Shown in pieces: positions 6,620-63,889 of a stretch of 64,000 bases of DNA. The position numbers and the translations under genes were made by a program. The notes under the pieces are model-generated. The model did not search any database, was not told where the DNA came from, and saw only the letters and a program-made list of their open reading frames with translations. The DNA lies in the IMG/VR virus record IMGVR_UViG_3300037455_000533, positions 998 through 64,997 of that record. One strand, 5' to 3'. How positions within the stretch are numbered: position 1 is the stretch's first letter; each line of letters starts with the position of its first letter. Origin of the DNA: a virus (Duplodnaviria > Caudoviricetes).

Positions 6620-6752
6620 TCTGTCTTGCCAACATAAGCGTAATTGGCTAAAATAAGGGCACCGATTTTCGGATCAATTTTTGAGCAAATTCGTTCATTT
6701 TGGATCTGGGGTCTAGTCGCCGCAACTGTATAAGTTTTTGGGGGGTGGGTGG
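6620..6752 (+). other. Conserved boundary element, copy A (promoter-like boxes, CTGTATAAGTTTT, G run)
   Basis: Five colinear blocks shared with 63735-63870 at near-identical spacing; TTGCCA-N17-TAAAAT at 6626-6654. Confidence 0.7.
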
Positions 6753-6757
6753 TATGC

Positions 6758-6787
6758 AAAAATTCCCGCCGCGGCGAGGCGACGGGA
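6758..6787 (-). terminator. GC-rich intrinsic terminator ending the recombination operon
   Basis: Stem TCCCGCCGC/GCGACGGGA, then ATTTTT on the minus strand just after the stop at 6794. Confidence 0.6.
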
Positions 6788-6793
6788 GAGGCT

Positions 6794-7231
6794 CTATAGC
6801 ATTGGCGTTGTTGTGGTCGTGTAGTATGTTGAATTGCTGCTACGTTGTTCTACTTCGAGCTTTTGTACTCTTGAGCACAATGTAGATACAAGTCCTTCCA
6901 ATGAAAGAACCTTAGATGTAAGATTGTTCACTTGATTCTGCAAATCATCTACACGTTTGTCGTTCTTAGCAAGTTTCAGTTTTACATCACTAATAAACCT
7001 GGCCACGAGCTTGTCGTTGGTATCATCCGTAAGTTCTTCCAACTGGAAGGACATTAACTCTTGCTCAGAGCTAAGATCGCTAATCTCCTCTTGTATCTTC
7101 TTAACTATATCCGCAAGGTCAGATAGTTGCTCTGCATTCTTGAGAGTGGCAGACATATCAGCGACGAGTGTTCCTTCTGCTGTATATATCTTACTTACTG
7201 CCTTTTTTTCTTCCTTTAGTCTTGCTGTCAT
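6794..7231 (-). CDS. Hypothetical coiled-coil protein
   Basis: 145-aa ORF with a heptad-like L/E/K/Q pattern. Confidence 0.7.
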   Translation of the reverse strand: MTARLKEEKKAVSKIYTAEGTLVADMSATLKNAEQLSDLADIVKKIQEEISDLSSEQELMSFQLEELTDDTNDKLVARFISDVKLKLAKNDKRVDDLQNQVNNLTSKVLSLEGLVSTLCSRVQKLEVEQRSSNSTYYTTTTTPML

Positions 7232-7394
7232 CTTTCTTCTCCTTGTTTATTAACTCATCAACTACGACAAATGAGATTACGAACCCACTGATCGCTATAT
7301 AGTATGTCCAAGCGTAAGCAAACAGTTCAGAGAATACGCCGAGAGATATACCAGCTAACAATGCTGTGAGTAGTGCTATATTTGATTTCTTCAT
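7191..7394 (-). CDS. Small membrane protein (two hydrophobic segments)
   Basis: GGAGG RBS; IALLTALLAGISLGVF and YYIAISGFVISFVVV. Confidence 0.65.
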   Translation of the reverse strand: MKKSNIALLTALLAGISLGVFSELFAYAWTYYIAISGFVISFVVVDELINKEKKDDSKTKGRKKGSK

Positions 7395-7404
7395 ATGCCT
7401 CCTG

Positions 7405-7482
7405 TGTGAAAGTTTTTAATGCGAAAGTTTTTTCGTAGGTGTGAAAGTTTTTTCGTTCATATTATTAATGCGAAAGTTTTTT
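7405..7482. repeat. Four direct repeats TGYGAAAGTTTTT
   Basis: Copies at 7405, 7420, 7440 and 7469. Confidence 0.85.
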
Positions 7483-8247
7483 CATTAGTCTGTCACAAAT
7501 AGTTTGGTTGCGTTTGATTTCCCAGATTTTAGTTGTAGGAGTTTTTTGGTCGAGAGGTCCGATACCTTCCAAAAGTTTTTGGTCTGAAGGCTTAGTCGAA
7601 TGTCTAAGTTTTTCGATTACTTTATCAGTTTCTTCTGCATCAGGATTACATAAGAACAAATATACACTATCTGTCTCTGTGATTAACATTGCCATATTAC
7701 ACTGTGCGATTGCCTGAGGTGGCACTGAAAGTATATCGAAGCAAGCCTTGCGATGTTTGAATGTTGGTACAATCTCATCTTCAGGTTTAGCCTCTTCAAC
7801 AGAACGAGTGTTCCCGTATTTATCTTTGTAGATAACATCGTTGTATGCCTTGAACTCTGCAAGTGATGCGATGTCATCAAGGTCTGGTTTACCATCCTTA
7901 ACTACACAAATTAAGCCATCAGGTGAATAACCAGCGTTCGGAAGTTTATCGTTCGTGATAAAACCACAGTCAACAAGAATAAGACCGTTCGACTTGAGAA
8001 CGTTATTATACCTATCCTTCATCTCGTGCTCAATCACGTGTCCACGCTCTGCGAATACATTTCCGTTTGGTGTGATACGATTTGCTGCGAGCCTGTTTGC
8101 TTCCAAAGCTGCGTTCTTACCCTTATTCAAGAGTGTGAGTGCGTTACTACACGTAACACGTCCTTCACGCACATCCAACCACTCCTGTGTGCCCTGGACG
8201 AGACCAAAATAGATATTAATGTCGCCGTACTTTTTAATCTGCGACAT
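7465..8247 (-). CDS. YqaJ/lambda-exonuclease family recombination nuclease
   Basis: QGTQEWLDVREGRVTCS, RGHVIE, GYSPDG, EFK and Q..MAM motifs. Confidence 0.85.
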   Translation of the reverse strand: MSQIKKYGDINIYFGLVQGTQEWLDVREGRVTCSNALTLLNKGKNAALEANRLAANRITPNGNVFAERGHVIEHEMKDRYNNVLKSNGLILVDCGFITNDKLPNAGYSPDGLICVVKDGKPDLDDIASLAEFKAYNDVIYKDKYGNTRSVEEAKPEDEIVPTFKHRKACFDILSVPPQAIAQCNMAMLITETDSVYLFLCNPDAEETDKVIEKLRHSTKPSDQKLLEGIGPLDQKTPTTKIWEIKRNQTICDRLMKKLSH

Positions 8248-8797
8248 CTTTCTCTAACCCCATTTCGATAGCAGGTGTAGATTCGTAACCAATACCTTTT
8301 AAGATATAACCGTACACATTTCTTACTGCACGAGAGATAGCACGAGTTTCTGCCATTCCGTACACTGCATAGTCTGGAAGGTTCTCCAAGAAGTCTTCTG
8401 ACTTATCTGCATACATATCTGACTGTGATACAAAACGACCAGTTTCCTTATCGAATAATTTACAAGTAGCCTTTACTGCCAAGCCACCCTCCATATCTCT
8501 GTATGCTTCTGTTTCAACTGAAGGGATGAGACCTTTAAGCATAGCGAGATATAACCATCCTTCGGCCTTAAGATATGTTGTGCCATCTTTCTTTTTAATT
8601 ACGAGTTCAGCACTCTCAACATAGTCCTTGAAGATAGCCCATTCTGTCTTTTCAGGGTTTGGTGCTTCAGTGATAGTTTCTTTAATCTTCTTCTCTTCTT
8701 TTTTGACAGGCTCAGAGTTAATCGTACTCTCTGCGTTTGAGAGTTTTTCTGTCAACTCTTCGTCCATCTCAATTTTTAACTGACCAATTTTACTCAT
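8234..8797 (-). CDS. Probable single-strand annealing recombinase (start at MSKIGQ)
   Basis: Adjacent to the exonuclease; MAETRAISRAVRNVYG helix typical of phage SSAPs; family not resolved. Confidence 0.55.
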   Translation of the reverse strand: MSKIGQLKIEMDEELTEKLSNAESTINSEPVKKEEKKIKETITEAPNPEKTEWAIFKDYVESAELVIKKKDGTTYLKAEGWLYLAMLKGLIPSVETEAYRDMEGGLAVKATCKLFDKETGRFVSQSDMYADKSEDFLENLPDYAVYGMAETRAISRAVRNVYGYILKGIGYESTPAIEMGLEKDVAD

Positions 8798-9281
8798 TGT
8801 CTTTGTCCTTTTTTCTTTCTTCACGCATCTTGTCCATAGCATCGTAGTCAATCTTAAGATTACCGCCATCCCCTTCTTTGAACGGGACACCGATCATAGC
8901 AAGTTCGATAGTAACGTTCTTAATCTCTTCCTTGATGCTGTCTCTGAACTCTTCGTATCCGCTTTCTTTTGTGCGTACGAAATTATATGGTTTGATGAGA
9001 CCATCCTTAACAGAACAGTGATACTCATTACAGACCAACTTAATCATATTTATAGCGTTGTCTGAGATTTCGCTTTCTGCCTGTTCCATAATATCTTCAG
9101 CATATTTAATATCATCAACGTTTTCGGTGTCGATGCCTCTGTCCTGAAGTTTTTTGACGGTAGAGATTACATTGCTTACAGAATCAGATGCTAGTCTCTT
9201 TGCTAAAAAGTAAGCAAGTTTGTAAAAGTCATCTGCGTTATCGATGATTACTGGTTCGCTGGTGTCTTTTATGTCTGCCAT
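8790..9281 (-). CDS. Hypothetical protein (start at MADIKD)
   Basis: GGAG RBS; overlaps the next gene. Confidence 0.65.
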   Translation of the reverse strand: MADIKDTSEPVIIDNADDFYKLAYFLAKRLASDSVSNVISTVKKLQDRGIDTENVDDIKYAEDIMEQAESEISDNAINMIKLVCNEYHCSVKDGLIKPYNFVRTKESGYEEFRDSIKEEIKNVTIELAMIGVPFKEGDGGNLKIDYDAMDKMREERKKDKDNE

Positions 9282-9282
9282 A

Positions 9283-15424: not shown

Positions 15425-16382
15425 ATTTGTTCTCCACTTTCTTATTCATTAATGCTTGTGCTACAGTATCTTTCTTAATCATCTGAGCCAGTGTTTTATC
15501 ACTCCAGAATTCTTGTGTTTTACACCAGTTAGCCATATGTAAGACCTCTTCCTCTGAATACTCTGTGAGCACGCCACGCATATTTTTAACTACAACATCA
15601 GTAACTTGACGCTTGTCCCTTCCAAGGACGTCAGCAACCTTGTTTGCGATGGCAGCAGCCCGACGCGTTTCCTTCTTTTTATCATCAATGGCTTTGACGT
15701 TCACTACGTTCACGTCTTCATCAAAAGGAAGTTCAAATACTTTCTTGATGTCGTCCGAGTCTGCGTCAGCAGACGAGGACTGTGTAGCGAACGCTGAACC
15801 TGCGTCAGCAGGTGAAGCGTAAGCGGAACACATATTTCTATTATTATTTATATTATTATTTCCGCTCTCTGTCGTAACAGGGGTGGCGTCTACACCTCCA
15901 GGTGTAGTTTCTACACTTCCAGGTGTAGTTTCTACACTTCCAGGTGTAGTTTCTACACTTCCAGGTGTAGTTTCTGATAATTTCACAATGCTGTTTGGTG
16001 TACTGTTGTGTGCTCCAATTCTAGCATTTATGTAGTCAATTTCACGTCTTCTTAAACAGATTGTTGTTGCCCAAAGGTCAGTCTTTTTACGGTACCAACG
16101 CTTGTCGGTAAGAATATGTTGTACGATTCCACGTTCTCTTAGTTTATCCATTGCAACAGTAACTTCTTCTTCTGTGAGATTCACATATGTCCCGATTGTT
16201 GCAAAGTTAGCAACGTTCCATCCGTATTTGCCTTCTTCCTCAAACCACCTTAATTGATGATAAACTCTAAACATATTCGAGCCGAATTTAAGGCCCTGTT
16301 TTAATGCTTCTTCTACGAATCTTGCTCTATAAACGATATCATTTGTAAAAGACATTGGTCGATTATTTGAAAAATCTTCCAT
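15414..16382 (-). CDS. Replication initiator (lambda O-like architecture)
   Basis: N-terminal wHTH-like region, internal TTPGSVE repeats (iterons), C-terminal helical domain; directly upstream of helicase and primase. Confidence 0.65.
   Translation of the reverse strand: MEDFSNNRPMSFTNDIVYRARFVEEALKQGLKFGSNMFRVYHQLRWFEEEGKYGWNVANFATIGTYVNLTEEEVTVAMDKLRERGIVQHILTDKRWYRKKTDLWATTICLRRREIDYINARIGAHNSTPNSIVKLSETTPGSVETTPGSVETTPGSVETTPGGVDATPVTTESGNNNINNNRNMCSAYASPADAGSAFATQSSSADADSDDIKKVFELPFDEDVNVVNVKAIDDKKKETRRAAAIANKVADVLGRDKRQVTDVVVKNMRGVLTEYSEEEVLHMANWCKTQEFWSDKTLAQMIKKDTVAQALMNKKVENKYVW
15889..15975. repeat. 21-bp tandem repeat CCAGGTGTAGTTTCTACACTT (about 4 copies), probable origin iterons
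   Basis: Units start at 15898, 15919, 15940 and 15961 (partial); AT-rich tract at 15832-15861. Confidence 0.85.
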
Positions 16383-16403
16383 TTTCCTCCTTATTGATTA
16401 ATA

Positions 16404-16682
16404 TTATTTTAATGACTTTCTTACTTGTTGCTCTTCTTCACGTCGAGCCTTAGCGACTTCTTCGCTTACTTTAATCTCACCTTCTTCGGCAAGTTTTGCT
16501 CTTGTTCGTCTGATTGTTTCTGGTGAGCTTACTGATTTTAAATGTTCGTACAGGTTTGGGTCTTCCCAACCTTCTAAGTACCAGATTGTTGCGATGAGAC
16601 GTTTGTCGTCATTCGCCAACTCTGGTCTATGTTTACAGAGAACTTTAATAAGATCTCTCATCTTGACGTCGTTTACTTTCAA
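16404..16682 (-). CDS. Hypothetical protein, possible HTH
   Basis: GGAGG RBS with TTG start; SPETIRRTRAKL helix. Confidence 0.65.
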   Translation of the reverse strand: MKVNDVKMRDLIKVLCKHRPELANDDKRLIATIWYLEGWEDPNLYEHLKSVSSPETIRRTRAKLAEEGEIKVSEEVAKARREEEQQVRKSLK

Positions 16683-24423: not shown

Positions 24424-24701
24424 TGGTTACGAGCAGAATATTTACTGCGTAAGATTACACGCATAGTAAAGCTGCTGCCAGACGGATTAACAACTGTTAA
24501 TTCGTGCACACCACCATAAGATCCTGAGGCGTTGAAGAAGTTTTCCTTCAACGTCTCATTTTCGTCTATACAAGAAAGAAGATTATACCATTTACCAGTT
24601 TCACGGCTTGGAAAGATACCGTCTCCTGCTGAGTCTGGGAGCGGATATTGTCTGTTCAAACTATCTGAGATATCTTGTCCGTCTAAATATACTCTTATCA
24701 T
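24420..24701 (-). CDS. Hypothetical, probably virion, protein (start at MIRVYL), leaderless
   Basis: TATAAT-N6-ATG at 24713-24701; in frame with the 24420..24821 track ORF. Confidence 0.6.
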   Translation of the reverse strand: MIRVYLDGQDISDSLNRQYPLPDSAGDGIFPSRETGKWYNLLSCIDENETLKENFFNASGSYGGVHELTVVNPSGSSFTMRVILRSKYSARNH

Positions 24702-24752
24702 ACCTTCATTATAATAAAAAACACAGATGATTTTTTTACTTATAATGATGTT

Positions 24753-31407: not shown

Positions 31408-31992
31408 TTAATAGCCTTTCCTTTTCATAACGCTATCCATATATTCTTCAACATACGCTTCGTTGAATATACTTCCTTCTGGGGTCCTTACATCTTTATT
31501 CTTGCGGTAGTCATATTCGTCAACGAGTGGCTCCCAATCGTACCCTCTTGGGAATCTGATTGGTCGGCCTTTCTTGTTAAGCACTGGGTTTCCAGCACTA
31601 TCGAGTGCCATTTTCCTCTTGGTAAGTGGCATAGACTCATTGCTTTCCCAAATCTCGTTGCTAAATACAACCTCGTGGAATAATGGGGATTCTTCGCCAT
31701 ATGTATCTACAACGATTGAACTCTGAATGTGGCCAGAGTTGTATGGGGTTTGCCCTCTTAATTCGACATAACCCTCTTCGTTTATCTCTTTAGCATCTTT
31801 TTCCATTTGACTAAGCCCATCTTCAATGTCATCGATTGTAGCTTCGAATAGAGCTTCTCCAACTTTAATTCCAGCGATGTCCATAACTAAGAGTTTTGCT
31901 TCTGTGATTTTTTGATTGCTCACAAATTTACGGAGTAATTTTTCTCCTCCGATGCACTTCTCTGTCGTCATACTGCCATCTGCGGTTTCCAT
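31408..31992 (-). CDS. HK97 gp10-like neck / tail completion protein
   Basis: TPYNSGHIQSSI resembles the TPVDTGxLRxSI signature. Confidence 0.55.
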   Translation of the reverse strand: METADGSMTTEKCIGGEKLLRKFVSNQKITEAKLLVMDIAGIKVGEALFEATIDDIEDGLSQMEKDAKEINEEGYVELRGQTPYNSGHIQSSIVVDTYGEESPLFHEVVFSNEIWESNESMPLTKRKMALDSAGNPVLNKKGRPIRFPRGYDWEPLVDEYDYRKNKDVRTPEGSIFNEAYVEEYMDSVMKRKGY

Positions 31993-32085
31993 ACCTTAAT
32001 CATAGTCTGTACTTACATTTGTTTTTTTATTTTTTCTTGATTTTGTTTTTAGCGTGATATAATAAAAGCATAAGAGGAGCTTTTT

Positions 32086-32705: not shown

Positions 32706-32775
32706 AATATGTGTTACGAAGAAGAAACTAAATCTTGTTAAAAAAACAAATGCAAAACCATACTATATTTAAGGT

Positions 32776-34095
32776 ATGGCAAGTAATGATAATAAAATAA
32801 GAGTCCAAAAGAGGTTGCTACAGTTCAACCAGATTCCTTTTGCGTTCGGAGAAGTGAATAATCCTTCTTATACTGCTACGTTCAAAGGTGAGGTCCAGAA
32901 CTACACTAACGCAGCCCACGGAGGTTATTATCCATCTTTGAATGACTGGGGTAAACTCCAGACATCTTCCTTTAGTGCTGATTTATCTTTTGATTTTACT
33001 GATATCGAATGCGAAGACAAGATACGCTACTTCCGCTTCATAAAAAGACAACTCTCAAAGTCTGGTAAACTATTCGCTACTCAAGGTGGTACAGAGATTA
33101 TCTGGACCAACGCTCGTGTCGTATCTATAAATGAGATTGTTGATGCTCCAAATGAGAAAGATATGTTCCGTCTTAACGTTACATTCGAACTTATTGATGG
33201 TTACTGGCGTATTGCTACCCGCACAAGAGCTTTCCTTTGTGAATATTGTCCAGCTCGCTTCAAGGATTTTGACCCTACATACTGCTTTGACGCTACTGAT
33301 TTCGTAGGTGCGTGTGACGAGACTGGTACATCTAAGTGTATCCCTTGTGAGATGAACTTGTATGAACCACCCACATACGAAGGTTGTGACTGGAAACCAC
33401 TCTGTAATTTCTCAAAGAAAGAGATTGAGTCTATGTTTGGTGTGAACTGTGCTAACAGATGGGCTATCAATTATTCTTGTGAACTTGAGAACAACTTCTT
33501 CTGTTTTGATGTGCCTTGGGGTAAAAAGTTTAGGCTCCGTGCTGATTCCAACTACAACACTACACACATCTCTCTCTGTTCTAAGACTGATTTTCCAACA
33601 GAGTTTGTACGTATCCGTCTATCTGGTGAGTTCTATAATCCTAAGATTTACTTTGTTAAGGATTATTCACTCTACAGCCCTGTTATCCCTGAAGGTAGCC
33701 CAGTGGCTCTTGGGTTATACGAGAAGACTAACGCTGGTGCTTACATCAAAACAACCGACAAGTGGCGTAACAAAGGAAAAACTTACTACGAATACACCCC
33801 AAATGATCCTACTTATGAAGTAATCGACTATGTTGTGCCAAAGGAAGATGCTCGTGTGAACATCAACGGTGTTATGACTATTGGATTTGGCCCTGAGATT
33901 TATTCTACTGATAACCCTCGTAGTGGAGAGAAGAACCAAGACGGTTCAGAAGCTACAGAGATTTCAACAATGTTCTCACGCTCGAACACACCTTACTTCC
34001 AGGTTATGCCTGGTATGAACGATATTGTTGTCGTAGGCAATCAAAAAGGCTCTGACGCATTTATTTACGTAGAGCCAGTTGAAGTCACTTGGTAA
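32776..34095 (+). CDS. Distal tail (Dit-like) protein with Cys-rich insertion
   Basis: Dit-like N-terminus (FRLNVTFELIDGYW) and C-terminus (YFQVMPGMNDIVV); about 13 Cys. Confidence 0.55.
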   Translation: MASNDNKIRVQKRLLQFNQIPFAFGEVNNPSYTATFKGEVQNYTNAAHGGYYPSLNDWGKLQTSSFSADLSFDFTDIECEDKIRYFRFIKRQLSKSGKLFATQGGTEIIWTNARVVSINEIVDAPNEKDMFRLNVTFELIDGYWRIATRTRAFLCEYCPARFKDFDPTYCFDATDFVGACDETGTSKCIPCEMNLYEPPTYEGCDWKPLCNFSKKEIESMFGVNCANRWAINYSCELENNFFCFDVPWGKKFRLRADSNYNTTHISLCSKTDFPTEFVRIRLSGEFYNPKIYFVKDYSLYSPVIPEGSPVALGLYEKTNAGAYIKTTDKWRNKGKTYYEYTPNDPTYEVIDYVVPKEDARVNINGVMTIGFGPEIYSTDNPRSGEKNQDGSEATEISTMFSRSNTPYFQVMPGMNDIVVVGNQKGSDAFIYVEPVEVTW

Positions 34096-34779: not shown

Positions 34780-35261
34780 TATTTTTCTCCAATCGGTAGG
34801 CTACCGTCGTTAATATCTTCGTCAGACAATTTACGTAATACGCCACATTCAAGAAGATACTCAGCCTCTTTTGGCTGTGTTACGTTACAGACAATCTGTA
34901 CAACACAGCAGTTGTGGAAGATCTGAGTGATGTTTGCCTTTACGATACGGTACAAGAACTTTGTATCGCCTTGCCAGAACCCGACATAGTCACCTGGCTT
35001 AATATCGTAAGGTGGTTGTATCTCTTGGCGTACTGACTCAAAATTAAATTCGATATAAGATGTGTCATCCTGGTTTAAGTTTCGCTCATTATGCTCGAGT
35101 TCATACACTTTAGCGGTTTGACCAGGTGCAGTTTCGACACACTCATAATCAGCTAAACGAATCCACGTGTTTTGTGGGTTACCAGTCTCATCATCAAAGA
35201 ACCCTGGGATGTTCCCTACGGTTTGCTTTCTTAATACTGTTATCTCGTTTGACTGTTTCAT
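34779..35261 (-). CDS. Probable head closure / neck protein
   Basis: Position in the neck cluster; DIKPGDYV motif. Confidence 0.4.
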   Translation of the reverse strand: MKQSNEITVLRKQTVGNIPGFFDDETGNPQNTWIRLADYECVETAPGQTAKVYELEHNERNLNQDDTSYIEFNFESVRQEIQPPYDIKPGDYVGFWQGDTKFLYRIVKANITQIFHNCCVVQIVCNVTQPKEAEYLLECGVLRKLSDEDINDGSLPIGEK

Positions 35262-35290
35262 ACCTTAATTATAAGGCACAAAATCTTATG

Positions 35291-35806
35291 TTATTTTTGA
35301 GATTGTAATGCTTCGTCTAAACAACGAAGGCATTGCATTGGCTCAAAACCAAATGCTAAACTACAGGTTAATGCGAGGCTCTTGCCAGCTGCTATAAGGC
35401 TTTTCTCAGCTTCAGGAGAACAGTCTCGAGCGTGGAAGTTCTCGCCTGCTATTACGTAAGCCATAGCCCTGTGTTTGCATTGGCAGTAGTAATGACGATT
35501 ACTCCCAGGTACACTATCAAAGATAGAGTTAAGAGCATCAACACGATTTCTGTAATCAATTCGAACAATTTCATAATTAACGTTGAGCTCGTCTGCTATT
35601 TTCTCAAGCTCTTCAGGCGTTTCAGCACCTTCCATATCTGAGTATAAGTTGCAGATTTGCTCGTCATTGTGCCCCATAGCGGCTTCAAGTTGGCCTACCT
35701 TGACTAACTCGTCAAAGATCCACCCTCGCTTCTTCTTGAATGATTGGAATTCTTGCTCTTGGCTGTCATCCAACGACACAACCTTTTGTTCCTCTTTTTT
35801 AGCCAT
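35291..35806 (-). CDS. Hypothetical protein with CxCxH and CxxC motifs
   Basis: YCQCKH and QCLRC; GGAG RBS. Confidence 0.7.
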   Translation of the reverse strand: MAKKEEQKVVSLDDSQEQEFQSFKKKRGWIFDELVKVGQLEAAMGHNDEQICNLYSDMEGAETPEELEKIADELNVNYEIVRIDYRNRVDALNSIFDSVPGSNRHYYCQCKHRAMAYVIAGENFHARDCSPEAEKSLIAAGKSLALTCSLAFGFEPMQCLRCLDEALQSQK

Positions 35807-37104: not shown

Positions 37105-37818
37105 TTAAGCGACGATAGGGTTAGAGGTATCCCAGTTGGTAAACCTGAAAGCACCCAAGAAGCCAGTGTTTGTCATCTGGTCTTGAGATAAGACACGTCC
37201 TCCTGATGGCCAGACGTAGCCAGAAACGTTTTGGTTCCAAACTGTTATGGTATTACCTGTAGGTGTTGATACAGCCATAGCAATATGACCGTAATCGCCA
37301 CTTCCCCAGACAATCCAGTCACCTGGCTTTAGGTCAGCCCAGTTGTTGACTAAAGTGAATTCAGACCCTTTATTAGAATCGCGGCCAAGAGTCCAAACGC
37401 CACGAGCATTATCACCACCATTTACAAGTCCTCTATTTACCTGTCCGAGCCAGAAAGCGTTAGCATAATCATAACATTGACAACCAAAGGCACCGTCGGC
37501 GTCAATGGCCGAACCGAGTGGGTACTCTGTCTGGAATGCTCTGATTGTAGGCCAGCTATTCGTGCCACGTCTTACATTTCTTGCTACAGGTGTCCATTGG
37601 CTACCACTGCCAGAACCGTTACCAAAAACGAGTTTAAACTTATAATCCGATATGAAACACATATCGTTATCGTGACAGAGATATACAGTAGCACTGGCAC
37701 CAGATGAAGGAGCGTAATGTTCTTCACCACAGACACGCACTACAGATGCACCGATCTTGTTGTAATCGGTGTCTAGTCTTTTTGCATTCTCTGCTGATAA
37801 ACCTGCTACTGTTGTCAT
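37105..37818 (-). CDS. CHAP-domain peptidoglycan hydrolase, probably virion-associated (start at MTTVAG)
   Basis: GCQCYDYANAFW (catalytic Cys), YGHIAMA (His), VWNQN; leaderless promoter. Confidence 0.8.
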   Translation of the reverse strand: MTTVAGLSAENAKRLDTDYNKIGASVVRVCGEEHYAPSSGASATVYLCHDNDMCFISDYKFKLVFGNGSGSGSQWTPVARNVRRGTNSWPTIRAFQTEYPLGSAIDADGAFGCQCYDYANAFWLGQVNRGLVNGGDNARGVWTLGRDSNKGSEFTLVNNWADLKPGDWIVWGSGDYGHIAMAVSTPTGNTITVWNQNVSGYVWPSGGRVLSQDQMTNTGFLGAFRFTNWDTSNPIVA

Positions 37819-37854
37819 ACCTTCATTATGGCACAACAGTTTATTTGTTTTTTT

Positions 37855-41316: not shown

Positions 41317-43467
41317 TTAAGCTGTTCTTTTCCACATATAAACGGTTAAGTATGGAGGCATATTGTTATGAGCTTGGTCATTACCAAACGACATTAGATA
41401 GCGAGCGTTATTTGACGTAGATGAGTAAGCACCCTCGTAATTTGATGCTCCCCCATAGTCTAGCGAGAATACCCCAGTTAGTTTATGCTCGCCGTGAGAT
41501 ACGTGTGGCAATGTGCCTTGTATTTTAGGCAACTCGTTTGCAACGAGTTTATGAGTTGCTTCACCTCCAGTACTACCTGCCGTATAAGTTGAACCAGCAG
41601 CAAGCAAGAATCTGTCTTCAATCGCTTGCCAGGTGCCACCGAGGAAGGATTGCGGCGAAACGTTATTAACACTCATATAGATTGAGCCAACTGGATAAAT
41701 AATATCAATGATAGAAGCTTTATTTAACTTAGCTGCAGTCACAGAACCATCAGCAACCTCAACCACATCATTTTCTACATTAATGTTTGGACCAGCTAAA
41801 AATGTGCCTGTTCCAGTACTCGTATAAAATGTGTCTGATACGGTGTCGTATAATCCTACGGCACTATCATTAAGCCTGATACAAGGTAATAACTTCATAA
41901 CATACGTATTACCACGTTCAACAGTAAACGAGTATAATTTTCCGTACCCAAAATTGGCTATATTATTACCATTCTCATTACTTGCCATAATTGTAAGAAC
42001 GTCTGGCGTAGTAAATGTCTCAGTCGAGCGTGTAGCCTTTTGCGTGCCATCTATAAAGAAGTTGCCAGCACTTGCACGATAAGTGCGTGAGACATTCTTT
42101 GTACCAGTAACCGAAACTGTTGTCTGGGTGTTGTTGTAATCAGTACGAACGCTCGTATTGTCGTTGACGTTGATAAATACTGTGTTCGTGGTCTGGATTG
42201 TACTAACACGGCTACACCAAGCAGTAACCCATCCTGTAGCTGCACCTTCTGGCATAATATCACAGGTGATAATATCGTCACCCGTCAAATGAAATCCATT
42301 AATTCTGAAATATGTGTTGGTAGAGTTTTGGATATACTTAACTCTTTGATACTCAGCTGGGACTTCTGCATTACCACTGATAATGTCTATACCATCGCCA
42401 GCAAGATATTTAGCATTCGGTGCTAACTTTTCAAGAGTTACAGCTTCGTTAGCGATTCTGTTTGTAGTAACAGGCGGAATTGGCTGTGGGTCGTCAGGTT
42501 CGTCATACAAAGCAACGTGAACGTCAGTTTCAAGCACGCCGTTAGCATCAATTTCGAGATGCTCACCCACTTTAACGCCGCCAAGAGTTGATGTAGTAGC
42601 AGCAGGAAGGACATAATTGTTAGCGTTTGCTTCGATACCAGCCAGTTTGCTAATGTCTGAAGCTGTAGTGAACTTATGTGTGGTAGATGTGTCGTCTACA
42701 AGATCTGCAGATAGTTTATTCGAACTCGTAATCTCTGGTTGAAGGCCACTTACGAGGTCGGCAACAGAGAAACGGATCTCTGAACCACTCTCGAGCACAA
42801 GGACAACTTCTTTTGTAGCAGAGTCATAACTACCACTGACAACAACAGACTCAATAGGAAGGTCAACTGCTTGAGCTGTGCCAAGCGTGTTGCCATCTTG
42901 GTCCTTGAGTGTTGTAGTAAGCACGTACGTGCTTGAATCAAGGCTAACTGTAATCGAAGCACCATACTTTGTGCTATCTGGAAGTGCATTCACATCTGCA
43001 GCAGTGGTAGGGACTGTGATATTGATTGTTTTATCTTGTGCAGAGTTAGCAGTGAACGTCCCTACATCAGTACCGTTCTTCTGGACTGTAAGTGTCTTAT
43101 CATTAACTGTAGGGATGAGAGCATCTGTCTCTGCTTTTGTATATACCTGGCTCTTCGTGTAGTAATTAGTGAGAGCGTTAGTAATGTATTGCACAAGGTC
43201 AGTCTGGTCGGTAAGAGTACCTGTGATCGCACCCCACGTGCCAGCTCCGTGTGCGTTAATATACTGAATAAGGTCTGTCTGGTCTGTGATTGTACCAGTG
43301 ATAGTACCCCACGTACCTCCACCTCCTCCACCTCCTTGCGAAATAGCCTCTTTAAGAACCCAGTTAGCTACTGGGTTAGAAGAATTTTCATCAAGATGTT
43401 CGTCGACGACTACACGATAGCCGCCTTCTTGCCATTTCATCTTGATTGGGAATCTATTATCTGCCAT
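41317..43467 (-). CDS. Tail fibre / baseplate protein (start at MADNRF)
   Basis: WGTITGTITDQTDL repeats, lectin-like insert, C-terminal YPVGSIYMS...GGEATH.L...HNNMPPYLTVYMWKRTA. Confidence 0.75.
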   Translation of the reverse strand: MADNRFPIKMKWQEGGYRVVVDEHLDENSSNPVANWVLKEAISQGGGGGGGTWGTITGTITDQTDLIQYINAHGAGTWGAITGTLTDQTDLVQYITNALTNYYTKSQVYTKAETDALIPTVNDKTLTVQKNGTDVGTFTANSAQDKTINITVPTTAADVNALPDSTKYGASITVSLDSSTYVLTTTLKDQDGNTLGTAQAVDLPIESVVVSGSYDSATKEVVLVLESGSEIRFSVADLVSGLQPEITSSNKLSADLVDDTSTTHKFTTASDISKLAGIEANANNYVLPAATTSTLGGVKVGEHLEIDANGVLETDVHVALYDEPDDPQPIPPVTTNRIANEAVTLEKLAPNAKYLAGDGIDIISGNAEVPAEYQRVKYIQNSTNTYFRINGFHLTGDDIITCDIMPEGAATGWVTAWCSRVSTIQTTNTVFINVNDNTSVRTDYNNTQTTVSVTGTKNVSRTYRASAGNFFIDGTQKATRSTETFTTPDVLTIMASNENGNNIANFGYGKLYSFTVERGNTYVMKLLPCIRLNDSAVGLYDTVSDTFYTSTGTGTFLAGPNINVENDVVEVADGSVTAAKLNKASIIDIIYPVGSIYMSVNNVSPQSFLGGTWQAIEDRFLLAAGSTYTAGSTGGEATHKLVANELPKIQGTLPHVSHGEHKLTGVFSLDYGGASNYEGAYSSTSNNARYLMSFGNDQAHNNMPPYLTVYMWKRTA

Positions 43468-43519
43468 AACTACACTATATATCAAAACGTGACTCGTTTT
43501 TTTCAGTTATACTGATAGT

Positions 43520-44759: not shown

Positions 44760-47700
44760 TTATGCCTTGGTGTAAGTGAACCAAATATCGTACTGGATGT
44801 TTCCAGAGGTGATACCTTGGTTGTTAGCACAATAGAAACGGAGGGTTTGGCCAGTGTTGGTTGCAAGTGGTCTGAACCAATCGTTACCGCTCCAAACACC
44901 GTTGATGTCATACCAGTTAGTGCCAGCAGTGCCAGACATATCAACCATACCACCTTTGTTGAAGACTTTAGCAGTCTTGGCAACACCTGAACAGATGATG
45001 ATATTACCACCAAGGAGGTTAGTGCCAGTCGTAGTACCTTTCAACCTTTTACCATACAACCCACCACCGAAGTCATACTCAACACCAGCAGTCCATAAGT
45101 CAGGACGGGTGAGGAGTAGGCTGTTCTTGTTAGGTGCGGAGTTAGCAGCGTCGGTGGTCTTGGTATAGTAACAAGTAACCTTTGCAGTCTGACCAGATAG
45201 GTAGCTACCATAACTAAACCATAATGCGTTTGCTGGATTAAATCCACCGACGATAGTGAAGTATTGTTCGACCAAACCAGTTTGTGGCTGCGTACCAGCA
45301 ACAATAGTCCAACCTTGTGTATCGATACAAGTACCTTCGATTTTAACGAATTTATCGATAGTGCTTGGGAGATCGTTAATCGTCCTCTTACCAGTAGCGT
45401 TAAGGACTACATCGAATGACTTCTTATAGAGTGGTTTACCGAGGTATCCGCCGACTAATTGTTCATCAGTAGAATATACATCGTCAGCTGCGATAATGTT
45501 AGCACCAGACCTTGCTACTTCTACGAGTGTAATTTGCGAAGTGATTGCGTAAATCTTACAAGCCTGTTGGACGCTGATACATTCAGCATAAATAACCTTG
45601 TCAGTACTGCTAGTATTTGTATAAATACCAGATGCAGTGCCGTTCAAAGCCCAACCGCCACTGCCACTATGGTCATACGGGTCGACTCTTAAGATGTAGT
45701 TAGACGATCCAACTTCACGGACTCCCCATTCACCATTGGAAATACCACTACCCATCAACCCAATACTCATAATAACTTGGACAGTCATACCAGCAGGAAT
45801 TGTCCATTGACCGTTTGCAGGTTGTGCAAGTGTTGAACCCGTTTTGTTAACGAATGGAATTGTACCAGCTGAAGCTGTCCAGTCGGATGCTAATTTACCA
45901 TCTGCCCAATTAACACCAGCTTTTATGCCGCCACCAGCAACAGTAACAACTGTACCAGTAATAGTGGTGCCAGTGATATCGGTAATAACAGCAACGGATC
46001 CGAATTTATCGCTTACGAGAGTCTTTCCGACAATCAAATCTGCGAGTGCAGGTACGCTACCGTCATCAGACCTTCCGAGTGCAGTACGAGTAAGTGTCTG
46101 TGTTGATCCTACAACGCTAGGCAATGTTTCTGTAGTGTTGTAAACGAATGATGAAGCATCTCCACTTCCACTGATAGTCATAGTAGATACAGTTAATGTA
46201 GTTGACGTATGTGAAGTTACGACGCCAACAGTGCCAGCACCATCATAGATAAGTGTCTCACCGTCGATAATATCAGCTACGGTAAGTCCGCTTACAGTGC
46301 TTGCTAAGACTGATGATGTACCAGTAATTGTTGTGTTGAGAGTATCAGATGTGAGATATGAACCATCTGAAACGTCGCTACGGTCATTGTATGTGAATAA
46401 TACAGTACCAGTATCGTGGTCTTTGACTCTCCAACCAACGATTTCACCGCCAACTGTGACTGATTCAAAGTCATAGGTTGTGTCACCAACATCAGTGTGT
46501 GTAAATAATACAACACCTGTACCGTGGTCTTTGACACGCCATCCGATAGTCTTGCCACCAGATGTGACATCTTCAAAGTCATATTCTGTGTTATCGTTAT
46601 GATCTTGGTCGGTATATGTATAAATTACAACACCTGTATCGTGGTCTTTAACACGCCAACCAGTAACTACATCACCGAGAGTTGTGGTTTCAAAGTCATA
46701 AGTAGTATCTTGGTCTTTTGGAAGTGTTACTGAGCCATCTGCATTCTTAGGGATAGGGTTGCCTGATGGATATTGACCATATTCATAGATATCTGATACA
46801 TAGTTACCAGCATTGAGAGTGTGTGAATATGTCCAAGTGATGTTACCGCTGTTGTCGATTGACTGAATGACCCATTCAGTAAGATGGTCATCGTGGGTTT
46901 CGTCTTCACGGATATATGCATAGTCACCTTGAATTGGTGTTTGCCAACCAAGAGCTGTAGCAGCAGCAGTAGTTGCAGGTAAGTCTGCGTGAGTATCAAC
47001 AGCACCGAGACGTACGCCACGACGCTCACCAGGAGCAGTAGTGACTGTTTCTACGGTCAAGTTGTTTCCATTTACAGCTGTTACTCTACCGAGAGAACCG
47101 AACTCATCGTAGATAAGTGTCTCATTCAATACTACATCAGCAACAACTAAGCCAGTGACAGCAGCTGCAGCGATGGTTGTTGTGCCACCAATAACTGTGG
47201 TAAGAGTACCAGATGTAAAATAAGTACCATCTGATTTGGAAGCTGTAGGTTCAGTGTATGTAAATTTGACTACACCATTTTCCTTGAAGTTCCATCCATT
47301 TGCGGTACTTTCAATAATGTATTCATCGTTTTTGTCTACATAAGTAAAGATAGCTACGCCATCTTTCTTTAACACCCAACCAGTAGAGGTATTCTCTGCG
47401 GTGTATTCTGGCAAACTGCCTGCACCGCCTTTATCTTTGTGGGTGAAAATAACTGAACCACCACGAACGATTTGGAAACCGTCAGCGGTGTCTTCATATC
47501 CGTCGATAGTATCTTTATCGACATAAGTGAAAATTACAGTGTTATTACGTTTTGCACGCCAACCTGTAGAAGTGTTTTCAAACGTATAGCGTTCAATAGT
47601 TCCGCCACCGCCACTTCCAGAGGTCTCGACAAAAGTACCACACTTAGAGTTCCAAACGTAAGTACCTTGGTATGTGCTACAGTCTGAAATATCTTCCATC

Positions 47701-49620: not shown

Positions 49621-51285
49621 ATGATTACAAACACTCGAGAAAGTATGCTGTCACACGAGAGTCAAGAATATATTGACTCACGTCCTGACTGGGTATTTGG
49701 TAAGATACCTGATTTATCTGATTACCGTAAATTATCTGTAGACTCTTTTGATGAAGCCTTTACACTTGCTCGTCTTGGACAGGAGATGGCATCTGGAGTT
49801 CTACCAACCGTACACGGAAAACCTCTTCGTTTAACATTCACACAAGCACTTATCGTAGGGGCAGCTGTTATTGACCGTCCACACGCAGAGCAACTCGGCC
49901 TAGACTTTGAAAAGTACCGTTCTGTCTTGATGGTTACGCCTTCACGCTATGGTAAGTCGTTCCTAAATGCTATTGCCTGTATTATTATGGCAGGTGGTGC
50001 TGGTAAAGAGATTAACATTGGTGGTGCAACAAAAGACAAGGCTGGCATTATCCAGAATAAAATAGTTCAGTTGTTACCTGATACCATCCCAGCTATTCAA
50101 AACGGGCTCGTTGTATCAGACGAAGATGGCTCAGTTAACAAAAAGATTCAACGTCTTGCTACTCAGACATCTAAGGAAAGCCTTATGTGGCAGAATGGCG
50201 GCTCAATTAAGTCATTTTCAACAAACGAAGGTCAGAAGACATCGGACGTCCAATCTGCAGGTGCTATCGGTATTGGTGGTGATTACTGTGTATTCGACGA
50301 GATTCAGCTTATGTCACCTGTTGGTTTTCGTACAGCATCAAGGTTTATGATGGAAGGGCCAGATACTAAACGTTTTTGTGTTGGCAACCCACAGATTAAT
50401 GGTCACTTCAAAGACCTATATGATGATCCTGGTACATTCGTAATCCACATCAACGACATCACAGCAATCGTTGAAGGTCGTATGACACGCAAAGGATTCG
50501 AGCTCACAGATATTCCTACATATTCCAACGAGTACCGTGCATTTATTGAGGTTGAATTCCCTGATGAGAAGTCTGGTACAAGGTTTTTCTCAACTATGCC
50601 AGATGTATACGACGAAGCACATCACGAGAAAGCATACTCAAAGATGTACTTTATGGGCATCGACTCTGCTTATAAAGGTGCAGATGGTATCATCGTCACT
50701 CTTCTCAGCCTCAATCAAAATGGTTCCGAGCGTTGGGTAGTAGTTGAAAAGCAAATTGATATGAAAAAAGGTATCACGAACTGGGAGGAAGGCACTACAT
50801 TCGACATTTCTCTACAGATTCTTAAACTCTGGGAAGAATATGGTGTAGTTGCAGGATGTATCGATATCGGCTTTGGTATCCATATTTATGAGCAAATGCT
50901 ACAAATCCACCCAGATTTGCCTCTTGAGCCTATCAACTTCTCGGAAAAGCCTACAGAAAGCCGTGTAGAGACAGATTACAACGCAAAATATGCATTTAAC
51001 AAGCGTGCAGAGATGCACCTTGATATGAAAGATCTCTGTGAAAACCATATTTTAGAGGTTAAGAATGAATGTTACGAGGATATGATTCGCCAAATGCGTG
51101 AAGTTGGTAACACTCCAGAGATGAACAAGACTAAGATTGAACCTAAGAAGAAAATCAAAGAACGTCTCGGACGCTCTCCAGATAACCTTGACTCTGCTTG
51201 TCTTGCTGTGCACGCTATGGTTCTGTCTGGAGCTGTTGCTGGAGTTGGAGAAGTGGATGACGAGACTCTTATGGAGTTCTTGTAA
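49621..51285 (+). CDS. terL: Terminase large subunit
   Basis: PSRYGKS Walker A, VFDEIQ Walker B, VGNP motif III, nuclease MGIDSA and GRSPDNLDS. Start placed at ATG 49621 after TATAAT (track start 49558). Confidence 0.9.
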   Translation: MITNTRESMLSHESQEYIDSRPDWVFGKIPDLSDYRKLSVDSFDEAFTLARLGQEMASGVLPTVHGKPLRLTFTQALIVGAAVIDRPHAEQLGLDFEKYRSVLMVTPSRYGKSFLNAIACIIMAGGAGKEINIGGATKDKAGIIQNKIVQLLPDTIPAIQNGLVVSDEDGSVNKKIQRLATQTSKESLMWQNGGSIKSFSTNEGQKTSDVQSAGAIGIGGDYCVFDEIQLMSPVGFRTASRFMMEGPDTKRFCVGNPQINGHFKDLYDDPGTFVIHINDITAIVEGRMTRKGFELTDIPTYSNEYRAFIEVEFPDEKSGTRFFSTMPDVYDEAHHEKAYSKMYFMGIDSAYKGADGIIVTLLSLNQNGSERWVVVEKQIDMKKGITNWEEGTTFDISLQILKLWEEYGVVAGCIDIGFGIHIYEQMLQIHPDLPLEPINFSEKPTESRVETDYNAKYAFNKRAEMHLDMKDLCENHILEVKNECYEDMIRQMREVGNTPEMNKTKIEPKKKIKERLGRSPDNLDSACLAVHAMVLSGAVAGVGEVDDETLMEFL

Positions 51286-51617
51286 TGAAATATGAAATGA
51301 AGAATGAGACGCATAAGCAGCGTAGCAAACGTTTCAAGCAGTATTATGAACAAAACAAAGAAAAGATGATTGAGACGCATAGGCAGAATGTGTACAAGAA
51401 AATCACAGAATTTCAAGCTAGAGCTAATAATATGCGTAAAAAGGGTGGTGATGAGAGCAGGAAGAGGTTTGTACAGAAGCGTAAAGACCTTAAAGAGCTC
51501 GCAGAGCTTAACGGATTCTCTATCCAGGGGAAAGACTCTCTTAGCGAGAAAGATTTGGATAAATCAATCGAGTTTTTCTCACGATTGGCAAAAGAACGTG
51601 GTAAAATGAAAAAGTAA
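51285..51617 (+). CDS. Basic hypothetical protein
   Basis: 110 aa, coupled to the terL stop. Confidence 0.65.
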   Translation: MKYEMKNETHKQRSKRFKQYYEQNKEKMIETHRQNVYKKITEFQARANNMRKKGGDESRKRFVQKRKDLKELAELNGFSIQGKDSLSEKDLDKSIEFFSRLAKERGKMKK

Positions 51618-61559: not shown

Positions 61560-61563
61560 AATC

Positions 61564-62661
61564 TTATCCTGTAATGAATGTTAGTGTTATTTTGCCAGTT
61601 GTCGCAGGAACAGCCAAAGCGTCTGCTAAAGTTGCCCTTGTAGTGATAAGATATTCTTCATTCGTCTGTGCAACAGATTGAACTGCTTTGGCATAAATTG
61701 CTTCCAGTGCTTCTACTCTGTTTTCAAGATCCGTAAGAGACGCATCTAGCACCTGCCAGGTAGGAATATTGTTTGGAACTGCAGTTTCCTCGAAGTAGTA
61801 TAGAGCTTCTCCACTGTAGTAGCCGCTGTCAATATGGGTAGTTGAGAAGTTAGGAATCTCCCCAACGCCAATTACCTCTGTTTTCTTCCACTCAGCGTCT
61901 ACAGAATCATAAGTATAGATAACATTGAATTCGTGAGCATCGTTTTCTTTAACAAGACAAGTATCGCCATCAGCCATACCAGTAATGCTGTCCAGAGGGT
62001 AGTCGCCAGTACTCTCATTCTCAGCGTAATATGTGAATGAAGGGTGTTCCTCCCATAAGTGCCATACAGAGAGGACAGCGTCACGGACAGCTTTATACAC
62101 ACCATCACTCGTAATCGGACGGCGTGAGCTTTCTGTTGGGTATGTATCAGGGTTTACCCATACTGGGTAGCCAGTCTTCTGACAACAGTTCTCAGAAGGA
62201 GTCTCGCTAGGGTCGCTCGAAGGAGCACCCATCAAGACTTGAGGGTAAGTTCCACTTCTGAGCAACGCACTCAAGAAGGAGTCATAAGTACATAGGATAC
62301 AGGTTACAGCCTGTGCATACCTGTAAATTCTACTCCACATAGATGCGAGAGTAGGGTTATCATCAGTTTCAGAACATTTTGAGAAGTCATTTGCGAAGAT
62401 TGTAATCGCATTGTTTACAAGTACCGCTTCAAGGTCTTGTCTGATATCACATAGCAGACCTTGCAAGTCTTCGCAGTTGGTATGCCCATCATTGTCGAGA
62501 CCGACGTTCTCAGCCAAGTTCGTACACTGCGTACTTGTTAACGCAGGCACCAAATCAGCAGGAGCGATTTGCTCACTTCGCTCGAGACAGTCGTTATAAT
62601 CCCCGTCAAGTACTTGCGGAGCGACCTTCGGACAATTATTTGAATTATTGTTATCTGCCAT
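61564..62661 (-). CDS. Cys-rich virion protein, paralogous to the C-terminus of 58115..60412
   Basis: NPTLASMWSRIYRYAQAVTCILC versus NPTLATLWSRILRFDHAVACVLC. Confidence 0.65.
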   Translation of the reverse strand: MADNNNSNNCPKVAPQVLDGDYNDCLERSEQIAPADLVPALTSTQCTNLAENVGLDNDGHTNCEDLQGLLCDIRQDLEAVLVNNAITIFANDFSKCSETDDNPTLASMWSRIYRYAQAVTCILCTYDSFLSALLRSGTYPQVLMGAPSSDPSETPSENCCQKTGYPVWVNPDTYPTESSRRPITSDGVYKAVRDAVLSVWHLWEEHPSFTYYAENESTGDYPLDSITGMADGDTCLVKENDAHEFNVIYTYDSVDAEWKKTEVIGVGEIPNFSTTHIDSGYYSGEALYYFEETAVPNNIPTWQVLDASLTDLENRVEALEAIYAKAVQSVAQTNEEYLITTRATLADALAVPATTGKITLTFITG

Positions 62662-62709
62662 ACCTTTACTATAGTACGGCTAATCATTTGTTTTTTTATT
62701 TTTTAATTT

Positions 62710-62928
62710 TTAATTTCCGCCAGCAAGCCAAGATAAGATTCCGAATCCCGCGAAGACCCAGAATAAGAACTGGAATAATCCGACTCCCATCCAAGCGATA
62801 AGACCCCAGATGACAAGTAGCATCAATGCGATGAGTACAATATGAACGATTGCAAGAGCTACGAGAGCACGTTGTCCGAGTCCTTTGATATCCTTTTCAC
62901 TGAATTTGAATGATCCGAACCACCACAT
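62710..62928 (-). CDS. Small integral membrane protein
   Basis: Promoter TTGACA-N17-TATAAT, AAGGAAAAAGG RBS, very hydrophobic. Confidence 0.7.
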   Translation of the reverse strand: MWWFGSFKFSEKDIKGLGQRALVALAIVHIVLIALMLLVIWGLIAWMGVGLFQFLFWVFAGFGILSWLAGGN

Positions 62929-63312
62929 TTCCTTTTTCCTTTCTTATTTATTATTACTTACATTATACTCCGTTTTATATAATTTGTCAACACTTTTTAT
63001 CGAATCTCCCAAGATATCTTCGATATGGGAGTAATTTAAGGTGATTTTTTTATTTTTTCGTCCAAATTTAGAGCCAAAAGGCCCATTAGTTTCGATATAA
63101 TAACATATACTGCTATGTTAAGCAAGGTGCCATTTCCGAACAGAATGGACCGAAATGCGACTTTTGGGCGTGTTTGTTCGGGTTTTTATGTTTGACAAGT
63201 AGTATCACAACATTTTATAATATAGATCTCTGAAAAAAAGCTGTTGGAGAATTTAGGACGAGCTGCATCCATTTACTCGGTCGGGGTGGTGGTATTAGTT
63301 ATGAGTTAATGT

Positions 63313-63633
63313 TTAAGCAAGTTTGATTGAAAAGGTGTTATCTTGTCCCTTTACAGGTTCAAGTGTTTTAATCGTGTTTGGTTCAAGGTCAAGTTTTAAG
63401 CCGTTTAATCTTACCTTGTCGCCGTTAATGGTTGAGTGCTTGCCTGTTGCCTTGCCTTTACCTAGTTTAATATAGAGTGTGTCGCCAGATACAGCATAGC
63501 ACATATAATCAAAGCCGTTCAAGTCGTCAAGGTTGAAGTGTGCCATTGTGTTTGATAATTCACAGGTGCCAGCCTTTACGGTGCGAGCGTTTGTGCGAGT
63601 GTTGAAAAGTGTTGAAAAATTGATGTTATCCAT
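63313..63633 (-). CDS. Hypothetical protein (start at MDNINF)
   Basis: GAAAGGA RBS. Confidence 0.65.
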   Translation of the reverse strand: MDNINFSTLFNTRTNARTVKAGTCELSNTMAHFNLDDLNGFDYMCYAVSGDTLYIKLGKGKATGKHSTINGDKVRLNGLKLDLEPNTIKTLEPVKGQDNTFSIKLA

Positions 63634-63734
63634 AAGAAAAAATCCTTTCATATACCACCACCGAGCCGAGTTTTTAATGTTGCGATATAACTTGCGTTAT
63701 ATCTTGAATATATCTTATAACGGAAACATAGACT

Positions 63735-63870
63735 ATACTTGCCATCATTCGTATGCTATCCCTGAAATAAGCCCCATTTTTATACCCGTTTTTTTACGCA
63801 AATCTGAACGTGGGCAAATCCTGGGTCTCGCCCGTGAACCTGTATAAGTTTTGGGGGGTGGGGGTGGGTG
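63735..63870 (+). other. Conserved boundary element, copy B
   Basis: Colinear with 6620-6752; ends in G6-T-G5-T-G3. Confidence 0.7.
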
Positions 63871-63889
63871 CGTTCGTCGGCGGGGCCGC

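Follow-up and report, generated by a model that had tools for sequence, protein, structure and literature searches.

The IMG/VR virus record IMGVR_UViG_3300037455_000533 (Duplodnaviria; Caudoviricetes) is 64,997 bp long, and its bases 998–64997 form the 64,000-nt stretch analysed here, hereafter the window, to which positions refer unless stated otherwise. The window contains two diverged copies of a non-coding element of about 130 bp, copy A (6620–6752) and copy B (63735–63870), the limits of which were set in the initial annotation from the positions of five colinear blocks. The first 127 bases of the record are identical to its last 127 bases; since such an exact overlap is the product of a k = 127 assembler on a circular path, the map is a circle of 64,870 bp, and the two flanks of the window, whose joining had been left to be checked, are joined by this overlap. 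In the window, the circle-closing assembly overlap occupies positions 63874–64000, and the contig begins 5 nt past the G/T tract of copy B. On the circle, copies A and B are 57.1 kb apart in one direction and 7.76 kb apart in the other. The initial description of the pair as bracketing exactly a 57-kb replication and virion core is right as to the bracketing, but the exactness is an effect of the window ends, because on a circular map the pair equally brackets a 7.76-kb block encoding a MoxR-type ATPase and a VWA-like protein (the MoxR/VWA block). The comparisons presented below indicate that the pair is a genuine, selected, strand-specific non-coding site at both edges of this block in at least two phages.

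The short arc between the copies (record positions 1–997 plus window positions 1–6620) carries solely minus-strand genes, which encode proteins of 122, 85, 255, 337, 391, 551, 316 and 180 aa; the first seven of these open reading frames (ORFs), marked by G-ending codons, make up the window part of the block (1–6270, minus strand). The 337-aa protein is a MoxR-type AAA_5 ATPase and the 551-aa protein resembles DUF2201/VWA 'metallopeptidase' proteins, the usual partners of MoxR-type ATPases. No replication, packaging, integrase or resolvase genes were found in the 7.8-kb block. A search of the whole genome for integrases and resolvases gave no PF00589 match and, for PF00239, only a 13.5-bit match with internal stops, so that no tyrosine or serine recombinase was found in the genome that would support a role of the elements as att- or res-like recombination sites. 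A blastn comparison of the first 8 kb of the window with cultured phages gave no match. The earlier suggestion that the elements are packaging sites of two co-joined replicons, such as a phage and a satellite, is not supported by this gene content, nor by the synteny of the block, which is retained in all relatives found.

The five blocks CTTGCCA, AAATAAG, GCAAAT, GGGTCT and CTGTATAAGTTTT were all found with the reported positions and spacings, starting at 6625, 6651, 6685, 6709 and 6726 in copy A (spacings 26/34/24/17) and at 63738, 63765, 63798, 63823 and 63840 in copy B (27/33/25/17). The likeness of the copies holds against dinucleotide shuffles; the best local alignment, corresponding to a 27-nt core, scored 42 versus 17.5 ± 2.4 (z = 10), and a global alignment of the ~105 bp upstream of the core alone scored 15 versus −17 ± 5.5, a value attained by none of 1000 shuffles. 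With up to three mismatches allowed, the window contains two occurrences of the 19-nt core CTGTATAAGTTTTGGGGGG, versus 0.00 expected, and a hidden Markov model (HMM) built from the two copies found exactly two sites in the whole record. The repeat pair is real and not a product of chance. Scans of IMG/VR with the exact pattern CTGTATAAGTTTTKGGGG returned three matches, all within coding sequences of unrelated contigs and attributable to chance, and a stricter bipartite pattern returned zero matches. Both copies lie, as was stated initially, just after the stop of a minus-strand gene, copy A after a 145-aa coiled-coil ORF (6794–7231, minus strand) and copy B after the 180-aa ORF, of which the 3' part, with the stop at 63890, lies within the window (63890–64000, minus strand; whole ORF at record positions 17–559).

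Loci of relatives were collected by alignment of ATPase homologues from IMG/VR, JGI/NCBI metagenomes and GTDB genomes. Protein searches of public assemblies revealed many relatives, with ATPases of 64–99% identity, several of them on contigs of 53–68 kb; no close relative was recovered from IMG/VR when the ATPase, helicase or 365-aa protein served as query. The closest locus, L010, encodes an ATPase with 72% identity, and the HMM made from the two window copies alone produced two matches in it, at 16631–16680 (E 6e-5) and at 7861–7941 (E 0.039). These are 8.8 kb apart, border the same block and have the same orientation relative to the genes, so the view of the elements as functional paired cis-sites delimiting a genome module, already expressed in the initial annotation, was borne out by a corresponding pair at the same two block edges. 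A tblastx comparison of the two genomes indicated synteny of the helicase (78% identity), the exonuclease (68–80%), the ATPase (79%), parts of the VWA-like protein (74%), the 365-aa protein (52–78%) and the 180-aa/190-aa pair (46%; the L010 homologue lies at 16084–16656). The ORFs adjacent to the cores gave no tblastx match, which applies to the 145-aa ORF and the 193-aa ORF in its place, to the 122-, 85- and 255-aa ORFs compared with those of 182, 237, 78 and 75 aa, and to the 112-aa ORF and its L010 counterpart.

The four copies, two in the window genome and two in L010, align without gaps over 62 nt in the sense of the genes, which corresponds to the minus strand of the window. The core consists of a C-tract of 12–16 nt (e.g., CACCCCCACCCCCC), the motif AAAACTTATA, exactly 13 variable nucleotides and the motif (G/T)AGACCC(A/C)(A/G)G. 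In copy A (6702–6760, minus strand; nhmmer, record positions 7757–7699, E 6.5e-12) the C-tract is followed by AAAAACTTATA, the 13-nt spacer and TAGACCC; in copy B (63815–63872, minus strand; record positions 64869–64812, E 6.4e-13) a C5AC6 tract is followed by AAAACTTATA, the spacer and GAGACCCAGG. About 30 of the 62 positions are invariant among the four copies, and the 13-nt spacer and the flanks vary; pairwise identity is only 33–42 of 62 positions (53–68%), so the conservation resides in the fixed sub-motifs. From the centre of AAAACTTATA to that of GAGACCC is a distance of about 21 nt, or two helical turns. Outside the core, the blocks AAATAAG, GCAAAT and CTTGCCA are common to the two window copies and are not found in L010, the copies of which share private blocks of their own, TCGGAGGGGGGT, GGGGTCAAAA(A/T)TGAGG and TATGGTATAAT. 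An expectation that corresponding copies would be more alike between genomes than within them (copy A with L010a, copy B with L010b) was met only by copy B and L010b (42/62), the other pairs having 33–38/62. Each genome contains exactly two copies in direct orientation.

Each copy starts 0–45 nt past the stop codon of the upstream gene and is preceded by a GC-rich hairpin, which forms a convincing intrinsic terminator only at copy A and is weak at the other three; the terminator (6764–6787, minus strand), with a 9-bp stem including seven GC pairs and an ATTTTTG tail, ends the upstream transcription unit directly before core A. About 130 nt downstream of core A, the promoter scan predicted two overlapping sense promoters, AAGACA-17-TATATT and TTTACA-16-TAAACT (6586–6627, minus strand), and the CTTGCCA block of copy A is the −35 region of these candidates read on the opposite strand. 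At the aligned position both L010 copies contain TGGTATAAT, an extended −10 sequence; the corresponding region ~130 nt downstream of core B contains −10-like hexamers only, and the scan called no promoter there. The plus-strand promoter-like sites containing TTGCCA, which had been described in both copies and, for copy A, as pointing into the G run, were not recovered as a pair; TTGCCA-N17-TAAAAT of copy A (6626–6654, plus strand, 10/12) passed the sigma-70 scan, the TGAAAT of copy B lacks the −11 A and was not called, and no inward promoter was called near either L010 copy. The 145-aa ORF upstream of copy A is not conserved in L010. The ORFs upstream of the two copies were also considered as paralogues, as would result from duplication of a gene together with its site, and no relationship between them was detectable.

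A further paired feature is an array of GAAAAAACTTTCRC repeats located about 700 bp upstream (in the sense direction) of each core. The array on the copy A side comprises four GAAAAAACTTTC(G/A)C repeats (7407–7482, minus strand) just past the exonuclease gene; its partner, with about seven repeats including some variants, lies outside the window at record positions 640–745, upstream of the 180-aa gene and core B. Such arrays are found nowhere else in the window genome, and some of the repeats have a GAAA-N-TTTC dyad character. L010 contains arrays of the same repeats at 7136–7185 and 15886–15957, and AAAAACTTTC repeats are present on both flanks of the ATPase block in L007, L016, L009 and L022, relatives with 45–48% ATPase identity. 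Each array precedes a short transcription unit that ends at a core, and the arrays look like an operator or iteron system. The AAAACTT..AC part of the repeat matches 9 of 11 positions of AAAACTTATAC in the core, an echo that is only suggestive, given that the probability of such a match by chance is, by our estimate, a few percent. Directly after the array on the copy A side there is a 51-aa hydrophobic ORF (MKKSNIALLTALLAG..., 7241–7394, minus strand) with an AGGAGG ribosome-binding site (RBS), which fell below the cut-off of the ORF list.

The elements coincide with a step in codon usage. The frequency of G at third codon positions (G3) is 0.27–0.35 in the genes of the block, including those for the 316-aa and 180-aa proteins, and 0.07–0.23 in the other genes tested, regardless of strand, apart from a 110-aa plus-strand ORF (51285–51617, G3 0.32); GC content at third positions in the block genes (window positions 1–6270 and record positions 17–1842) is 0.42–0.58. 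Just outside the elements, G3 is 0.23 in the 145-aa ORF on the copy A side and 0.10 in the 112-aa ORF on the copy B side. L010 is G3-rich throughout, which points to a compositional history of the window block distinct from that of the remaining genome, the transitions falling at the elements.

In relatives with 45–48% ATPase identity, HMMs of the element and of the core found no homologous cores. These genomes have paired repeat-rich non-coding regions of about 1.2 kb at the block edges, not alignable to the core. L009, the only relative in which this was seen, contains six DnaA boxes, three of them perfect (TTATCCACA), clustered in a 125-bp stretch of the non-coding region downstream of the ATPase block (L009:9653–9777), inside 39-nt repeats; no such cluster was found in the window genome or in L010. 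L022, a contig binned to an Acutalibacteraceae metagenome-assembled genome (MAG), has a TTGACA/TATAAT promoter region of 51 nt, 90% identical between the two block flanks (L022:1690–1760 and L022:10100–10215) and preceded by the same repeats as those of the arrays, as well as a non-coding stretch of ~1 kb in which TTAAAG-type repeats are abundant. In L007 (17137–17335) and L009 (10429–10617), the sequence downstream of the block contains a C8...G7 hairpin and, after it, an exact tandem duplication, of 85 bp twice in L007 and of a 46-nt unit 114 bp apart in L009; this combination could be a packaging or terminus region, or an effect of assembly.

The remainder of the genome contains minus-strand replication genes (exonuclease, helicases, primase) at about 7.4–16.7 kb, virion and packaging genes, including those for the portal, the large terminase, a 462-aa capsid-type protein and a 1662-aa tape measure protein, and a single tRNA gene, tRNA-Cys. 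The phage is a siphovirus with a tape measure protein, and no integrase was found. A Clostridia host is suggested by the AGGAGG RBS, the TTGACA-N17-TATAAT promoters and the presence of a distant relative on a contig in the Acutalibacteraceae MAG bin. A T7-type RNA polymerase was not found, in a search that lacked a positive control and is uninformative. The best tblastn match of the large terminase was to Lactococcus P087-like phages (~30% identity over 40% of the protein), too distant for the packaging type to be deduced from it. Terminase homologues in G001–G003, the records behind L007, L008 and L009, have open frames of 837–1145 aa versus 575 aa here, with matched segments about 1 kb apart, which suggests inteins or other in-frame insertions in the terminase genes of these relatives. 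Directly before the start codons of virion genes there are about seven conserved upstream sequences, composed of AAAAAAACAAAT, ~14 nt and TATAGTAAAGGTATGG in gene sense (24696–24737, 31987–32028, 32739–32793, 35256–35297, 37813–37854, 43462–43503 and 62656–62697), which form a phage-specific class of late promoters or leaders. In-frame repeats are present in a 322-aa ORF (21-nt tandem repeats, 15878–15982) and in a 1037-aa ORF (three diverged repeats of ~108 nt, 46384–46708).

The reading that we place first, tentatively, is that the element is a candidate DNA site bound by a phage or host protein and marking the operon or module boundaries of the MoxR/VWA block; the edges of a terminal repeat are placed second, followed by replication origins, a sense-RNA signal and recombination linkers. 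It is placed first on account of the gap-free, spaced core, which lies where one unit ends and ahead of the promoter of the following unit, of the operator-like arrays that accompany both copies, of the replacement of adjacent cassettes and of the step in codon usage. An ungapped 62-nt core with a free spacer is more in keeping with a spaced protein-binding site than with an RNA helix, and core A, which should be mostly untranscribed from upstream owing to the strong terminator between it and the upstream gene, is conserved nonetheless. According to this proposal, a sequence-specific factor would bind the core on the double helix, where the centres of the sub-motifs are about two turns apart, and would link each unit's end with the beginning of the following one, so that the block operon and the following operon would be co-regulated. 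The element might also be a place where cassettes are exchanged between phages, since the site, unlike the genes next to it, is conserved. Comparable units are known as PeSL cassettes (an early promoter plus a stem-loop) in T4-type phages and as 'boundary sequences' at module junctions of lambdoid phages. These are short conserved intergenic units with a stem-loop and a promoter that flank variable cassettes and coincide with points of modular exchange; of their traits, the element has the variable flanking ORFs, an upstream GC-rich hairpin that is strong only at copy A, and a predicted promoter at copy A and both L010 copies, though not at copy B. Unlike them, it occurs in two copies per genome, not dozens, has a tripartite core (C-tract, AAAACTTATA, GAGACCC) with fixed spacing that lies upstream of and apart from the promoter, and bounds one conserved 7.8-kb operon, not single ORFans.

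Several observations weigh against a boundary site bound by a protein. No binding protein was identified, the scan called no promoter after copy B, and a clear terminator is present at copy A alone. The core and the −10 sequence are separated by about 129 nt at copy A and about 136 nt at copy B, and the helical phasing of core and promoter is therefore not fixed. The C-tract of 12–16 nt is without explanation if the site serves a regulator, and the paired regions of ~1.2 kb in the distant relatives exceed the needs of a simple promoter region. A regulatory site also does not predict a contig start 5 nt past the G/T tract of copy B, for which sequencing errors in the G run could be a cause. The sample is small, comprising four copies from two genomes.

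The position of the contig start is among the reasons to consider that the cores are instead the edges of a long direct terminal repeat, as one of the initial models had it, the same core being recognised at both edges by the terminase or a partner nuclease; the virion DNA would then be a linear molecule of about 72.6 kb carrying the 7.76-kb block at either end, in the manner of phages of the T5, SPO1 and Twort types, and short-read assembly would collapse it to a circle. By our estimate, the probability of a random contig start so near either element is less than about 1e-3. Two direct non-coding copies with a shared core flanking a one-strand block of 7.8 kb (8.8 kb in L010), in a siphovirus with a tape measure protein and no integrase found, would agree with such a genome organisation, and the repeat-rich untranslated borders of the distant relatives, along with the DnaA boxes of L009, recall the terminal repeat of T5. 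By our count, ATPase-bearing contigs of about block length (5.2–8.3 kb) were found in 13 of the 35 closest clusters, compared with 5 of 35 for the capsid protein, and assemblies may tend to break at both elements; strain variation in the core-side cassettes would, however, also break assemblies there, the G6TG5TG3 tract is the most error-prone run in the genome and could alone create a graph vertex at the contig start, and the contigs of L010 and of the IMG/VR records G002 and G003 all end away from their elements. The block, moreover, looks like one long operon of large proteins, not a host-takeover region with many promoters. In the long terminal repeat of T5, the untranslated regions IRCspacerIRD and IRD'spacerIRC' contain a 131-bp paired element and DnaA boxes and are accompanied by far less conserved ORFs (10.1101/866236). 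Similarities to T5 include the siphovirus morphology, the paired non-coding element of ~130 bp that is much more conserved than its neighbouring ORFs, the block of 8–10 kb read in one direction and the DnaA cluster of L009; the T5 pair, however, is inverted and lies inside the terminal repeat, while the pair described here is direct, flanks the block and lacks DnaA boxes in the window copies. On balance, we regard terminal-repeat edges as unlikely, and it is similarly doubtful that this uncultivated family of ~60–65-kb Clostridia-type siphoviruses packages linear DNA with a terminal repeat of 7.8–8.8 kb, both edges of which are set by the tripartite core (C-tract, AAAACTTATA, N13, GAGACCC).

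Other functions of the two sites appear less probable still. Replication origins or priming sites, including the R-loop/G-quadruplex (G4) origin proposed initially, are improbable, despite the repeat arrays adjoining both copies, the position of copy A at the end of the replication-gene operon, its 10/12 promoter directed into the G run and the DnaA-box cluster of L009 at the equivalent of the copy B side. The two origins of phage SPP1, oriL and oriR, share initiator boxes, and T4 has several origins; as in SPP1, a single Firmicute siphovirus has a pair of diverged non-coding sites that share boxes in a common order, but here no initiator gene or AT-rich unwinding element was identified, the DnaA-box cluster is missing from both the window genome and L010, and the repeat arrays lie ~700 bp from the cores and not inside them. 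The R-loop/G4 mechanism is not supported since the inward promoter was called only in copy A, being absent from both L010 copies, and no canonical G4 motif (four tracts of three or more G, loops of 1–7 nt) was found in any of the four copies; the G4 competence claimed for copy B requires a loop of 13 nt, and in L010a not even a two-tetrad motif is present. A promoter-like site upstream of a non-template G run in copy A does resemble ColE1 RNA II, mitochondrial CSBII and T4 ori(uvsY)/ori(34), but conservation of the promoter and of the G4 potential does not extend to the other three copies. The cumulative GC skew has no turn at copy A, and its maximum next to copy B, at record position 12, is explained by the steep skew of the G3-rich block. 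The element could also act as RNA in the sense transcript, as a signal similar to lambda nutL/nutR or HK022 putL/putR, or as a C-rich site of Rho loading and termination, which we judge to be rather remote. Homologous repeat-array promoters are located one or two genes upstream of both copies, the weak upstream hairpins of three of the four copies make read-through likely, and, as in the lambda and HK022 systems, there are two diverged copies per genome, each about one gene downstream of an operator-array promoter. In minimum free energy folds of copy B and both L010 copies, the C-tract pairs with G-rich sequence located ~100 nt downstream, though any C-run/G-run pair would do so, and the long-range pairing is weak in the window copies. 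The strong terminator before copy A speaks against an RNA signal, as do the ungapped core, the non-pairing 13-nt spacer, the lack of convincing covariation among four sequences and the shallow RNAalifold consensus folds (−4 to −11 kcal/mol, for the two window copies only). Rfam 15 gave only the tRNA at the gathering score and two chance-level matches for both element regions at E ≤ 1. Unlike nut and put sites, the copies lack a conserved hairpin or a boxA/boxB-like pattern, copy A follows a terminator, the units are direct and not divergent, and no N-like or Q-like gene was recognised. Passive recombination linkers, which would persist through homologous exchange of neighbouring cassettes and have no sequence-specific function of their own, would account for the non-homologous core-flanking cassettes of the window and L010 and for the codon-usage shifts at the elements, and we assign them a low probability. 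The copies are only 53–68% identical, their identity being concentrated in fixed sub-motifs at a constant spacing, which argues for purifying selection on the site and not for recent exchange, and 62 nt at ~60% identity is a poor substrate for homologous recombination. An artefact of assembly or library preparation, namely poly-G dark-cycle tails joined to a Nextera mosaic-end remnant, could be brought to mind by the abutment of copy B on the contig end and by the 8-nt CTTATACA that the mosaic end CTGTCTCTTATACACATCT shares with the core in our comparison; with copy A internal to the contig, and with both copies internal, syntenic and diverged in the independent assembly L010, this explanation has a negligible probability.

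Conserved non-coding sites in uncultivated phages have rarely been defined, and the pair described here offers a compact, strand-specific site of 62 nt that outlasts the replacement of its neighbouring genes; whichever of the two leading interpretations applies, neither needs a G4 or R-loop. If the cores are the edges of a terminal repeat, they would reveal the signal for packaging and the real ends of the genome for an entire family so far represented by metagenomes alone; in that case the MoxR/VWA operon would act as a 'first-entering' module like that of T5, and a single recognition sequence would both start and stop packaging. If the element is a boundary or regulatory site, it would provide a handle on the control and exchange of the MoxR/VWA module, which is widespread in phages.

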